Source of the DNA: a virus
Lineage: Duplodnaviria > Heunggongvirae > Uroviricota > Caudoviricetes
Direction: 5' to 3' (one strand)
IMG/VR virus record: IMGVR_UViG_2671180673_000015
Length of the DNA: 31,239 nt
The position numbers and the translations under genes were made by a program. The notes under the pieces were generated by a model. That model saw nothing but the letters and a program-made list of their open reading frames with translations. It was not told the DNA's origin and searched no databases. The first letter of the stretch is position 1; each line of letters begins with the position of its first letter. Of this stretch, positions 975 through 4,687 are shown piece after piece.

Positions 975-2015
975 TTATTTAGACGCAAGCGCCGCCTCAA
1001 TTGCAGATAATCTTTGTCTTAATTCTGCGTTTTCTTCTTCCAGTGCTGTTATTCTGTCGTCTGACTCTCTGGCTACCTGAACAAGCAAGCCAGTAACACC
1101 AGAATAATCTACTGTGTAATAACGTTCACCTTCTTCACCTTCCGATCCGCTCGCACCGTCCTGATATTTCATTNCGGAACCTACAACTTCTGGGATTGCT
1201 TCCAGAGCTTCCTGTGCAATGACACCAGCATAGGGCATACCGTTTTCTTTAAGCGTGTATGTATAGCCGTTCATTTTACGGATGCGGTCGGTTGCATTAT
1301 CGATCACCTGAATGTTGTCTTTCAGATCCCGGTCGGAATGCTGGTTAAATGCGGTGGCATGACATGCACCATTAACGCTTAACATATAGGTGTTATCGGT
1401 ATTTTTCTGCGCATAGAACATATAAGCGCCACCATCAACACCGACTTCATAAACAACAGGACGGCTGGAGTTGCCCCACAATTGAGCAGTAACACCAGCA
1501 TAAGCGGTTCCCTGTGTGTTTAATGTCATGGTTGACCCATGATTGGCATATTTGATCTGTAATGTGTCGGTGTAATCAAATTTAATAAGCGCGTTACTTC
1601 CACGCTTGCTGTATGACATAAGGCAGTTACCCATTTTGAGGTATCCGCTGTCACCGGGAAAAATCATCGTACCGCCATAAAGGTTGGTAAAGTCCCAGCA
1701 AATGTTTGTCCCGTTATCGTTCAGGTTAAGGCGCGCCATTGCGTTACCTGGACTGTCTATCCATTTTTTGAGGTATAGTTCGCAATACGCATCCTCAACA
1801 CCTGCCGTCCTGTGAGTTGAGCGGAGTTTTCTCCCAAATATAGCTCCGCTAGTTGGCAATACCTGCTGATACCATGAAACAGACCAGTCACCAACGATTT
1901 CATCTTTGCTGTCTACATATAATTTTGTTGCGTAGCTTCCTTGATCGTTTTTTAATTTGCTAACGTCGGATTTTAGCGTTTTGATGTCATCAGGAATTAC
2001 TGTCGATGTAGCCAT
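975..2015 (-). CDS. Short tail fibre/tailspike-like protein (346 aa) with a C-terminal intramolecular chaperone (peptidase S74-like) autocleavage domain
   Basis: C-terminal motifs ...NQHSDRDLKDNIQ...YAGVIAQEALEAIPEVV...YTVDYSGVTGLLVQVARE... followed by a coiled-coil tail (ITALEEENAELRQRLSAIEAALASK) match the endosialidase/T5 pb1-type chaperone domain. RBS GAGGAAG precedes the ATG at 2015. One X (n at 1174). Confidence 0.7.
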   Translation of the reverse strand: MATSTVIPDDIKTLKSDVSKLKNDQGSYATKLYVDSKDEIVGDWSVSWYQQVLPTSGAIFGRKLRSTHRTAGVEDAYCELYLKKWIDSPGNAMARLNLNDNGTNICWDFTNLYGGTMIFPGDSGYLKMGNCLMSYSKRGSNALIKFDYTDTLQIKYANHGSTMTLNTQGTAYAGVTAQLWGNSSRPVVYEVGVDGGAYMFYAQKNTDNTYMLSVNGACHATAFNQHSDRDLKDNIQVIDNATDRIRKMNGYTYTLKENGMPYAGVIAQEALEAIPEVVGSXMKYQDGASGSEGEEGERYYTVDYSGVTGLLVQVARESDDRITALEEENAELRQRLSAIEAALASK

Positions 2016-2024
2016 TTTTCTTCC

Positions 2025-2306
2025 TCACATCCAGCCACGAAGTTGATGCTCAACAGCAACCACGTATTCATCGAATAATGACGATATTTGCGAATCATTA
2101 ATGATGCGCACGTTTACAAAATATCCGTCTTCCTTAACACATACCGGTTCGCCATCTTCAGTCAGTTCTCCGGTTTCTTTGTACACGTTACCTATCACGT
2201 CAATAAGAATATCATCCTGCATCGACTCGTCATCATAATAGCCAGTACTCTCCATAAAGGCCGAAAAGTCGGCCCTGTCGGCAAATTTGAGTGTTAAATC
2301 TTTCAT
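2025..2306 (-). CDS. Hypothetical acidic 93-aa protein, translationally coupled to stf (TAATG overlap); possible fibre adaptor or assembly factor
   Basis: Start ATG 2306-2304 overlaps the stf stop TAA (2306-2308) by 1 nt; ends 9 nt before the next gene's RBS. No family recognised. Confidence 0.6.
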   Translation of the reverse strand: MKDLTLKFADRADFSAFMESTGYYDDESMQDDILIDVIGNVYKETGELTEDGEPVCVKEDGYFVNVRIINDSQISSLFDEYVVAVEHQLRGWM

Positions 2307-4687
2307 TAGATTGACTCCCCCACCTGAGCATCAGTCAATGCCTTGTGCCATATTCTGAAATTCCTGACATGACCAAATAAATGACGTAACCCGGCTGTAG
2401 TCTGGCCTCCAATACGGATAATTGCGGTGTTCTGAATACAGGACCATGTGGTTTTTGTTTCGCTGGATATATGCCCGTTACTTACTGAGCACGTAGACTG
2501 CTCTGACTTTACACGCATCCCCATAACCATTTTTTCAAGCGATGCGTTTTCGTTTACCCGTCTGTTAGCTCCTCCAATATCGCAATAAGGAAATCCGTCG
2601 TAATCTGTTGAACGACCGAAGCCAAGAATAATAGCCGCTCCGGTTTGATGACCGCCGGTATCAAAAACACGTGGCGCTGCATTTGGCGTTTTATACCAGT
2701 TCTTATGTACCTCACAAAGAACCGTAAAAGGAAGATTATAAAGATTATTCTTAATTGGAACTGTAACTATATCGCTTGCGCGGGTCGCCGCCGTCGCTCC
2801 TGATATAATAAAAGATGATACACAAGGCCCATCTTCTACTTGTGGGGTGGCCAGATAAATATAGTCACCAGATACGGTTGCCCCGCTCTGCTTAGGAGAA
2901 TACTGTATCTGAGAGCCTATTTTAAACTCCCCATCAATTGCCTGAATTGTTGCCTCTGCAAAAATCCATCCGGTAGCTTCGTCCTTTCTGACTCTCGCTG
3001 TAATTCTTGAGGCAGCACCGCCTGTCATATTAATTTCAAGCGTTTGTGTATCAATATACGCATCACCAAGAAAAGTTGTTGCGCTACCGTCATATTTATC
3101 AAACCGGATACGCAACCTTACCTGCAGTTCTGTTTTAAAACGACATGAGGTTGTCACGTGTTTATTATCGCCTGAGACATCAACTGACTTTGTTGCAGCA
3201 ATTGATGCCATATTAATGGCTGAGGTTTGCCCAATCAGAGAATCGTTGCAGACAAACTTTCCATAGGTAAAACCAAAATTATCCGTCCCTGTTTCGGGCA
3301 CATCCATATTTGACGATCGCCCCCAACTGGCAGGGCTTTCCGAATTGAGCATGTAGTTTGTTCTTTGCCCCTCAATAAGCAGGCCATCACGTTCAAATCG
3401 TGGCTCGTCAATGGCAGCCTCTGTCAGCACACCAGATTTGTTAATATAGGTTGCTTTCGATGCACGTTTAAACTTAACAATCTTGTCGCCAGGCATCGTT
3501 ATTTCATCGTCACCAATAACAATTTTTTTATATGACGGCGAAAAGCCCGTAATCATATCCAGTGAATCGTTAAACGGTATCCACACATCAGGCAGTGGCT
3601 GTAAGACATATTTATACGGCTCTGCTGCCTGACTTGCATACTCTCTGGCTGCGTCTTCACTTGCTTTAGCTGCTGTCTGGCTTGCTGCCGATGCTTTCGC
3701 CGAGTTCGCCGCTGCAGTCTCGCTTGTCTTTGCATTGGTTTCACTGGTTTTTGCCGCTTTTTGACTGTTGGCTGATGCAGTGGCAGAAGCAGCCGCCGCG
3801 CTTGCAGAACCAGCTGCCGCGCTCTCGCTTTGGGCTGCTGCAACCTGGCTGTTTTTCGCCGCAGTTTCGCTGGCTTTGGCATTCGTTTCGCTGGTCTTCG
3901 CTGCCGTCTGGCTGGACTTTGCGTTAGTTTCACTCGTCTTCGCAGCTTTCTGGCTGTTAGCCGCAGCAGTTGCTGATCCAGCTGCTGAAGTCGCAGAACC
4001 GGCTGCCGCGCTCTCGCTTTGGGCTGCTGCAACCTGGCTGTTTTTTGCCGCAGTTTCACTGGCTTTGGCATTCGTTTCGCTGGTTTTCGCTGCCGTCTGG
4101 CTGGACTTTGCGTTGGTTTCGCTCGTCTTTGCGGCTGTCTCGCTATTTTTCGCGTTGGTTTCTGATTTTTTGGCTGCTGTCGCGGAGTTTTCTGATGCAG
4201 TCTGTGAGGTCGCTGCCGCCTGTGCACTATTAGCTGCATTCGTTTCTGAGGTTTTCGCCGCGTTCTTCGATGATGCCGCTGCAGTTTCGGATTTCTTTGC
4301 CGCCGCTGCGCTCTGAGAGGCGGCTTCGGCGTTGCGTGCCGCTTCTTCCACCATTTCCTCAAAACGACGCAATGCCTCCGGCATGACATCATCTTCCGTC
4401 ATGGCACCGAGAAAATCATTCAGCGTACCTGGTCTGGAACCTTCATAGACGGTAATGGTTCCGGCATGTGAAGGCGGAAAACCTTCAACAAGCAGGATAA
4501 CGCTGTACTGGCCATACTCAACATCCATGCTGTAACGCCCGGCTTCATCCGGATTTTCAGAGGCCACCGTGTTCACCAGTACCGTGGTGCTGTTACGCTT
4601 TGCCTTCAGTTGAATAGTGCAGTTCTGTATTGGTTTTCCCGCACCATCTTTCAGCACACCTGAGATTTTTACTGCTGCCATATCCAC
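2306..4687 (-). CDS. stf: Side tail fibre protein (Stf-like, 793 aa): lambda-Stf-type N-terminal anchor, Ala/Ser/Thr-rich repeat shaft, and a C-terminal globular domain ending in a ConA/LamG-like motif
   Basis: N-terminus ...AVKISGVLKDGAGKPIQNCTIQLKAKRNSTTV...GRYSMDVEYGQYSVIL... is lambda Stf (orf-401)-like. Shaft carries KTSETNAK-type repeats. C-terminus ...GLRHLFGHVRNFRIWHKALTDAQV resembles the end of lectin-like jelly-roll domains (inference). Start may be ATG 4687 or 4681. Confidence 0.85.
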   Translation of the reverse strand: MDMAAVKISGVLKDGAGKPIQNCTIQLKAKRNSTTVLVNTVASENPDEAGRYSMDVEYGQYSVILLVEGFPPSHAGTITVYEGSRPGTLNDFLGAMTEDDVMPEALRRFEEMVEEAARNAEAASQSAAAAKKSETAAASSKNAAKTSETNAANSAQAAATSQTASENSATAAKKSETNAKNSETAAKTSETNAKSSQTAAKTSETNAKASETAAKNSQVAAAQSESAAAGSATSAAGSATAAANSQKAAKTSETNAKSSQTAAKTSETNAKASETAAKNSQVAAAQSESAAAGSASAAAASATASANSQKAAKTSETNAKTSETAAANSAKASAASQTAAKASEDAAREYASQAAEPYKYVLQPLPDVWIPFNDSLDMITGFSPSYKKIVIGDDEITMPGDKIVKFKRASKATYINKSGVLTEAAIDEPRFERDGLLIEGQRTNYMLNSESPASWGRSSNMDVPETGTDNFGFTYGKFVCNDSLIGQTSAINMASIAATKSVDVSGDNKHVTTSCRFKTELQVRLRIRFDKYDGSATTFLGDAYIDTQTLEINMTGGAASRITARVRKDEATGWIFAEATIQAIDGEFKIGSQIQYSPKQSGATVSGDYIYLATPQVEDGPCVSSFIISGATAATRASDIVTVPIKNNLYNLPFTVLCEVHKNWYKTPNAAPRVFDTGGHQTGAAIILGFGRSTDYDGFPYCDIGGANRRVNENASLEKMVMGMRVKSEQSTCSVSNGHISSETKTTWSCIQNTAIIRIGGQTTAGLRHLFGHVRNFRIWHKALTDAQVGESI
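3760..4137. repeat. Tandem duplication of an approximately 189-bp (63-codon) unit inside stf, with shorter 24-bp sub-repeats around it
   Basis: Near-identical approximately 130-bp blocks at about 3811-3943 and 4001-4131 (gccgcgctctcgctttgggctgctgcaacctggctg...); the protein repeats KTSETNAKSSQTAAKTSETNAKASETAAKNSQVAAAQSESAAAGSA twice. Confidence 0.8.

Follow-up and report, generated by a model that had tools for sequence, protein, structure and literature searches.

A mobile side tail fiber cassette on a lambda-type chassis, with a candidate self-chaperoning distal fiber and a conserved 93-residue partner protein

The DNA analyzed here is a stretch of 31,239 nucleotides from a virus of the Caudoviricetes (IMG/VR record IMGVR_UViG_2671180673_000015), and this whole stretch is referred to as the window. 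It contains a tail fiber module of three genes: stf, which encodes a side tail fiber protein (Stf), orf93, which encodes a small acidic protein, and orf346, which encodes a 346-aa protein ending in an intramolecular chaperone domain; orf93 and orf346 are used below for both the genes and their products. The same three-gene layout was found on phage chassis with unlike tail anchors, and the two receptor-facing parts of the module are reassorted around its conserved center. Here, we propose that the module represents, on a lambda chassis, a modular side or lateral tail fiber cassette that moves horizontally and is present in many enterobacterial siphophages; a short distal fiber made from orf346 would be docked on Stf and orf93 to give a bivalent fiber. 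We estimate the probability of this reading at about 0.6.

Organization of the fiber gene unit

The window belongs to a lambda-like prophage, whose late region it covers. The genes are arranged in the order stf–orf93–orf346 on the minus strand of the window and are preceded by J (5413..8892) and lom (4746..5345). Each of the three products is a full-length match to a PHROG family. The unit consists of the following features.

4698..4719, minus strand: terminator-like hairpin that separates lom from stf and bounds the unit upstream
2306..4681, minus strand: stf, side tail fiber protein of 791 aa, matching phrog_1419 over its full length
2025..2306, minus strand: orf93, 93-aa acidic protein, translationally coupled to stf (phrog_1361, an uncharacterized family)
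975..2015, minus strand: orf346, predicted precursor of a short distal fiber (phrog_4563)
954..968, minus strand: terminator-like hairpin that follows orf346 and bounds the unit downstream

The stf reading frame was listed as 2306..4687 from a GTG codon, with an alternative ATG at 4681. The ATG is the likely start, and the resulting length of 791 aa is the same as that annotated in phage 2G7b. The stf stop codon overlaps the orf93 start codon as TAATG, and the TGA of orf93 is followed by GGAAGAAAA and then by the ATG of orf346, leaving a gap of 9 nt. The three-gene arrangement, the coupling, and the spacing are therefore just as an earlier prediction, made from the sequence alone (hereafter the original prediction), had described them. 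Inside the unit, the coding strand has a single weak terminator-like match, at 1607–1587 within orf346, which is probably due to chance. The pairwise dN/dS values were 0.03–0.31 for orf93 and 0.07–0.30 for three parts of orf346, and this purifying selection indicates that both are real genes. An ambiguous base (N) at 1174 turns residue 281 of orf346 into X. Programmed readthrough from orf93 into orf346, which share a frame with the TGA and three codons between them, was considered and rejected, because relatives stop with TAA, the spacer of one relative contains an in-frame TAA, and that of phage KarlBarth is 11 nt long.

Domain structure of Stf

Five regions can be distinguished in Stf.

4286..4681, minus strand: N-terminal anchor domain, residues about 1–132 (PF08400)
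3710..4144, minus strand: shaft rich in Ala, Ser, and Thr, containing 2.3 copies of a 189-nt (63-aa) tandem repeat (85% matches)
3329..3598, minus strand: neck, residues about 362–451, conserved across allele classes (column conservation 0.70–0.83)
2777..3379, minus strand: variable β-sandwich resembling carbohydrate-binding modules (CBMs), residues 435–635, probable glycan-binding head
2309..2776, minus strand: C-terminal region, residues 636–791, with a second variable segment (677–751) and a conserved last 25 aa

In the Pfam scan, PF08400 covered residues 5–134 at nearly full model length (E 5.9e-67), in agreement with the lambda-type N terminus of the original prediction, and the N terminus also matched a tail fiber N-terminal fragment of known structure (Protein Data Bank [PDB] ID: 9e7m; E 1.4e-49). 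On the strength of these matches, the domain is assigned as the one that attaches the fiber to a lambda-type tail. The homologues of Stf are 649–749 aa long as compared with 791 aa here; the length of the shaft differs by allele, and the repeat number probably sets the fiber length.

The C-terminal part contains a lectin-type domain. NCBIfam NF048003, the gene transfer agent head spike fiber domain, matched residues 435–635 above its cut-off. An AlphaFold2 model of the C-terminal part, based on 30 homologues, was confident only for residues 445–620 (predicted local distance difference test [pLDDT] score of 75–95), which form a jelly-roll β-sandwich matching CBMs at a sequence identity of 7–15%. 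The pLDDT was below 50 over residues 625–791, and PF13385 (Laminin_G_3) matched residues 735–787 below threshold (E 0.0056; 17.3 bits; cut-off, 27.6). Thus, a confident lectin-type fold is located at residues 445–620, and for the last residues of the chain, where the original prediction had placed a ConA/LamG-like fold, the LamG-like signal is weak. The head is predicted, as the most likely case, to bind a surface glycan such as O-antigen. As to chaperone domains, the Pfam scan found no S74 domain on Stf.

Domain structure of orf346

Two elements stand out at the ends of orf346.

1941..2015, minus strand: conserved N-terminal peptide, MATSTVIPDDIKTLKSDVSKLKND, probable docking element
978..1337, minus strand: Peptidase_S74 intramolecular chaperone (IMC) domain (residues S227–K346), ending in a coiled coil

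PF13884 (Peptidase_S74) matched residues 227–278 (E 4.8e-14; 52.8 bits; cut-off, 22). The domain comprises the last 120 aa, opens with the motif S227-DRDL-K232, and has weak coiled-coil matches (bZIP, ZapB) at residues 317–340; it aligns to the IMC of the phage S16 gp37 fiber tip. The chaperone domain with its Ser/Lys motif and coiled coil, as originally predicted, is accordingly present, and the profile search proposed at that time gave no PF02413 match, so that orf346 is not a Tfa. Cleavage is predicted at Ser227, which would leave a mature fiber of ~226 aa. The Pfam scan detected neither PF08400 nor another recognizable anchor domain in orf346.

In characterized cases such as K1F endosialidase and T5 pb1, S74 domains act in cis on their own chain and are then cleaved off. 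This counts against a different reading of the third gene, in which orf346 and a 234-aa alternative found at related loci are not fibers but trans-acting chaperones whose S74 domain aids the trimerization of Stf. Stf has no IMC of its own, the only tfa gene in the window is a remnant, and the 234-aa variant has just ~115 aa before its S74 domain, all of which would fit such a role. The names "endosialidase chaperone" and "putative lateral tail fiber chaperone" in the annotations of phages ESCO3 and KarlJaspers would also fit it, but they merely copy the Pfam title. Moreover, residues 132–342 of orf346 have homology to the C termini of long fibers in several PHROG families (e.g., phrog_6578, residues 988–1200 of 1210) and to the S16 gp37 tip, the alleles of orf346 differ over residues 30–130 in the manner typical of a receptor-facing part, and an Stf with this kind of C-terminal part is retained even by phages that have no third gene. 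We regard a trans-acting chaperone as improbable, and a short fiber carrying its own chaperone is the preferred reading of orf346.

Occurrence of the unit on different phage chassis

The three genes travel together, as is seen in the virulent Nonagvirus ESCO3, in which the Stf C-terminal part (96% identical), orf93 (94%), and orf346 (87–98%) are all present together, whereas the N terminus of the fiber is only 32% identical to that of the Stf in the window. The co-transferred block, comprising the Stf C-terminal part, orf93, and orf346, is 94.5% identical in Nonagvirus. This joint transfer into a virulent phage and the flanking hairpins support the earlier suggestion of a single functional unit.

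The T5-like phage IrisVonRoten (Bas32) carries the closest described system, the gp22–gp23–gp24 locus. Its order and spacing are as in the window (a 4-nt overlap followed by a 9-nt gap). Gp22 aligns to residues 138–791 of Stf with 53% identity overall and 63% in the C-terminal part, Gp23 is a homologue of orf93 (38% identity), and the likeness of Gp24 to orf346 is confined to the N-terminal 17 residues and the S74 domain. The window therefore has every component of the gp22–24 type in the same order, namely a proximal fiber with C-terminal homology, an orf93-family gene, and a peptide-bearing third gene. The layout is repeated in KarlJaspers (Drexlerviridae), KarlBarth (Dhillonvirus), and JenP2 (Nonagvirus), so that the gene-order comparison suggested in the original prediction found matching loci on lambdoid, Nonagvirus, Drexlerviridae, Dhillonvirus, and T5-like chassis. 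After orf93, the third gene encodes 574 aa in IrisVonRoten (a T-shaped fiber), 348 aa in JenP2, and 225 aa in KarlJaspers, and it is split into 98 + 196 aa in KarlBarth.

Every third-gene variant seen begins with M(A/V)TxTxIPxDIxxLK. This peptide matched at least 58 records of the phage collection, all from phage groups that carry orf93, and in every locus examined it is located directly downstream of an orf93 homologue. The S74 domain is also shared, being present on the 234-aa alternative, the 225-aa third gene of KarlJaspers, and gp24 of IrisVonRoten. In the short forms of 225–234 aa, cleavage would leave a mature stub of ~115 aa.

The distribution of the peptide bears on where the second fiber is mounted. 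If orf346 were an independent fiber on the tail tip or baseplate, as in phages that carry several separately anchored fibers, it should have an anchor of its own, but neither PF08400 nor any other recognizable anchor was detected in it. The peptide is common to lambda-like, T1-like, 9g-like, T5-like, and Dhillonvirus phages despite their differing tail tips and anchors, and the Stf C-terminal part and orf93 are the only elements common to the chassis that bear it. The contact between orf346 and Stf is an inference from distribution, which leaves some room for a separately mounted fiber; we consider the latter very unlikely. Because the only partners shared by the peptide across these tails are the Stf C-terminal part and orf93, mounting of the short fiber on Stf, as the original prediction had suggested, is the best-supported reading, and from their common N-terminal sequence all third-gene variants probably dock on Stf and orf93.

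Reassortment around a conserved center

Variation of the module was analyzed in 80 metagenomic and prophage loci chosen for close similarity in orf93 (≥92%). This survey of viral contigs covered close orf93 relatives, and the phage collection was used for breadth. In the 80 loci, the Stf C-terminal part was 40–100% identical to that of the window, conserved at its ends (residues 362–451 and the 25 C-terminal aa) and variable in its cores (452–631 and 677–751), and the third gene was of either the 346-aa or the 234-aa type. Among the 346-aa types, residues 30–130 occurred as alleles with 56–62% identity. In the 66 complete lambdoid loci, the Stf C-terminal part fell into 11 classes and the third gene into 7, giving 17 combinations, with orf93 at ≥92% identity, the level by which the loci had been picked. 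The 17 combinations, together with the conserved ends and variable cores, indicate that the two receptor-facing parts have been swapped independently around a conserved center.

The module is common. The 3.85-kb allele was found at ≥80% coverage in 373 of 5426 complete Escherichia coli genomes, and four isolated phages (2G7b, Tritos, HannyBb, and PhiR63_1) carry it at 98–99% identity. In the phage collection, homologues of orf93 are present in 181 records, in each case at the 3′ end of a tail fiber gene, and the groups that bear them include lambdoids, phage 21 among them, Drexlerviridae, Dhillonvirus, Queuovirinae, and T5-like phages; rV5-like myophages gave partial matches. The original prediction had called the module unusual, which is incorrect, and the present copy is one ordinary example of this common cassette, with nothing new in sequence space. 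The cassette is also partly described through the IrisVonRoten models, although it is experimentally uncharacterized, so that the refuting condition named in the original prediction, a module both common and already characterized, applies in part. In sum, the earlier interpretation was largely right in its mechanistic reading and wrong about rarity.

The small partner protein orf93

The predicted acidic nature of orf93 was confirmed by its pI of 4.05. It had no match in Pfam or NCBIfam, including PF02413 and chaperone models, and shows no similarity to lambda Tfa. A profile comparison with a Tfa fragment by hhalign gave a probability of 0.2%, although this is a weak test because of the short template. 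Based on these negative results, identification of orf93 as a Tfa-like protein was rejected. The modeled structure is a compact, well-folded α/β domain (pLDDT 87). Among 1.84 billion representatives, this small family accounts for 51 clusters, of which many are fragments, and an exhaustive search for domain fusions as a clue to function returned only stand-alone proteins of ~90 aa and spurious repeat proteins.

The gene is located directly after the fiber gene also in phages that have no third fiber gene, namely phage 21, ev243, and the rV5-like EmilHeitz. Since it is kept where the third gene is absent, orf93 is tied to the Stf C-terminal part and not to the distal fiber. A role in assembly resembling that of Tfa is favored by this retention, by the location of the gene, and by its being translationally coupled to stf; most likely, orf93 is an assembly factor that takes the place of the Tfa of lambda.

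In phage T4, segments of the long tail fiber are joined by small hinge or adaptor proteins. In an analogous way, orf93 might be a structural connector that stays in the virion at the junction between the Stf end and the distal fiber peptide and acts as a socket for interchangeable fibers. Its identity of 92–100%, while the Stf C-terminal part varies over 40–100% and the third gene falls into two classes, is what a socket would show, as is the adjacency of the conserved elements (the 25 C-terminal aa of Stf, orf93, and the 15–25 N-terminal aa of the third protein). Its compact fold and its occurrence solely as a stand-alone protein would also suit a connector. However, conservation between variable cassettes could equally be explained by use of the region as a recombination linker, and a connector is not expected in phage 21, ev243, and EmilHeitz, which keep orf93 with no third fiber to connect. 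We therefore rank the assembly factor somewhat ahead and treat the connector as a less likely but serious alternative. It is likewise a tentative idea that orf93 represents a new fiber-junction family, a universal plug-and-socket, or else a new assembly chaperone unrelated to Tfa, gp38, and gp57A. If the former were true, the orf93 socket would bind the conserved Stf end and the N-terminal peptide of distal fibers, and it would let lambda-like, T1-like, 9g-like, T5-like, and Dhillonvirus phages swap distal fibers freely.

Proposed mechanism

Based on the domain assignments and the distribution of the module, we propose the following mechanism for the two-headed side fiber. The N-terminal domain of Stf would attach to the tail, and the repeat-rich shaft would extend from it to the C-terminal region of ~430 aa. 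In this region, the conserved ends would frame variable cores of the lectin type (CBM-like) that may bind glycans. The orf346 product would form a second, short trimeric fiber, folded by its own S74 domain, which would then cut itself off at Ser227. The N-terminal peptide of this fiber may dock on the conserved frame of the Stf C-terminal part together with orf93, and orf93 would be the partner of the Stf C-terminal part, either as an assembly factor or as a connector staying in the fiber. Recombination across the conserved orf93 region would exchange the Stf head and the distal fiber separately and could thereby change the host range.

Several points weigh against this proposal. Docking of orf346 on Stf and orf93 is deduced from co-occurrence, and the structural models are of single chains. 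The conserved ends of the Stf C-terminal part that may serve as the docking frame lie outside the residues modeled with confidence by AlphaFold2 (445–620). The constancy of orf93 in the 80-locus set is partly a product of selection, because the loci were picked as the closest in orf93. A Foldseek search of orf93 against viral models returned only uncharacterized proteins and no fold that indicates a function. Finally, orf93 does not covary with the variable Stf heads, unlike Tfa-type chaperones, which track the fiber tip, and this weakens a simple chaperone reading of orf93.

Comparison with known fiber systems

Humolli et al. (PMC11990801) predicted that the T-shaped, IMC-bearing Gp24 of IrisVonRoten is attached to the proximal Gp22, from whose C terminus a galectin-like domain protrudes. 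Their assignment is based on structure prediction and an O16-dependent host range, not on biochemistry, and the small protein is not discussed. The two systems differ in the proximal anchor, which is of the T5 type in IrisVonRoten and the lambda type (PF08400) in the window, and in the third protein: Gp24 has 574 aa with a Gp12-like and T5-like double head, whereas orf346 has 346 aa, and their middle parts are unrelated.

An experimentally supported analogue is the branched LtfA/LtfB fiber of the T5-like phage DT57C, in which the second fiber is mounted on the first, an attachment attributed to a short conserved N terminus of LtfB (PMC4728585, PMC10713586). The likeness lies in the mounting of one fiber on another and in the separate receptor specificity of each protein. 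In contrast to the module studied here, no small gene of the orf93 type is described between ltfA and ltfB, and LtfA has a C-terminal cleavage site of its own, whereas Stf has no S74 domain. A search of the phage collection detected no similarity between the N terminus of orf346 and DT57C LtfB or phiEco32 gp15.

The resemblance to lambda stf–tfa is in the PF08400 anchor, the position after J and lom, and the placement of the prophage at the lambda att site. The difference is that the distal part of Stf and its chaperone system have been replaced here, there is no intact Tfa, and a second fiber gene has been added. Compared with other S74 carriers (K1F endosialidase, T5 pb1, and S16 gp37), orf346 is alike in the Ser...Lys motif, the C-terminal position of the domain, and the terminal coiled coil, but it is unusually short, with a predicted mature length of ~226 aa, and has no tail anchor of its own. 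Residues 435–635 of Stf resemble the fiber domain of the Rhodobacter gene transfer agent head spike (NF048003) and bacterial CBM4/22-type modules; here, the domain is part of a tail fiber, not of a head spike or an enzyme. It was stated in the BASEL-1 paper that the lateral fibers of small siphoviruses and T5-like phages may comprise one, two, or more proteins. The papers on engineered lambda fibers (PMC11338833) and on Gifsy-1 Stf (PMC12312913) contain nothing on this module.

Tfa remnant and the flanking region

Downstream of the unit, the original prediction had expected no Tfa-like gene, but a remnant of one is present.

500..619, minus strand: truncated tfa remnant, last 36 codons of a Caudo_TAP gene (PF02413 positions 95–130 of 131, E 1.7e-17)

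The remnant, a 3′ fragment of 39 codons at 500..619, is annotated as a pseudogene in RefSeq, and no intact Tfa follows Stf, neither orf93 nor orf346 having a PF02413 match. Because only the 3′ end of tfa remains, an older stf–tfa module was evidently replaced by the cassette with one breakpoint inside tfa, and the loss of a functional Tfa fits a fiber that no longer needs it. A 49-aa reading frame at 378–527 overlaps the remnant; its RefSeq name, "nucleocapsid protein," looks spurious.

The lambda att core, GCTTTTTTATACTAA, has an exact match at 91–105 on the minus strand, and ybhB and bioA lie directly beyond position 1 of the window in identical E. coli genomes. From the core match and these neighbors, the window begins at the prophage–host junction in the lambda attB. 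The lambda b region is almost wholly absent.

Between the remnant and the fiber unit, after the terminator of the latter, positions 639–932 (minus strand) encode a predicted membrane protein of 97 aa (phrog_1443), which is kept downstream of the fiber genes in lambdoid relatives. It directly follows orf93 in phage 21, where it is annotated with two transmembrane segments, and in ev243, and it is absent from the Nonagvirus copy. This protein may be encoded by a lysogenic-conversion or exclusion gene.

Two further observations concern the window as a whole. It contains 40 isolated single N bases (e.g., at 1174, 5666, 7186, 10056–10236, and 18831–21932), so that X appears in the translations of J, several head genes, and orf346 (residue 281); such a pattern points to a masked or consensus assembly and not to gaps. 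The G+C content falls to 0.39–0.47 at about 24500–28500, as compared with ~0.57 in the structural genes, suggesting that this segment, close to the lysis and regulatory end of the prophage, is mosaic or accessory.

Implications

Side and lateral tail fibers make the first step of host recognition, and they matter for the host range of temperate coliphages and of engineered lambda-based delivery particles. The cassette described here is widespread, reassorts two receptor-binding parts around a conserved small protein, and moves between temperate and virulent phages. Establishing whether the orf93 family acts as an assembly factor or a connector would give a function to a frequent "hypothetical protein" of E. 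coli prophages. The docking mode, together with the role of orf93, would yield a natural rule for building bivalent or retargeted fibers.

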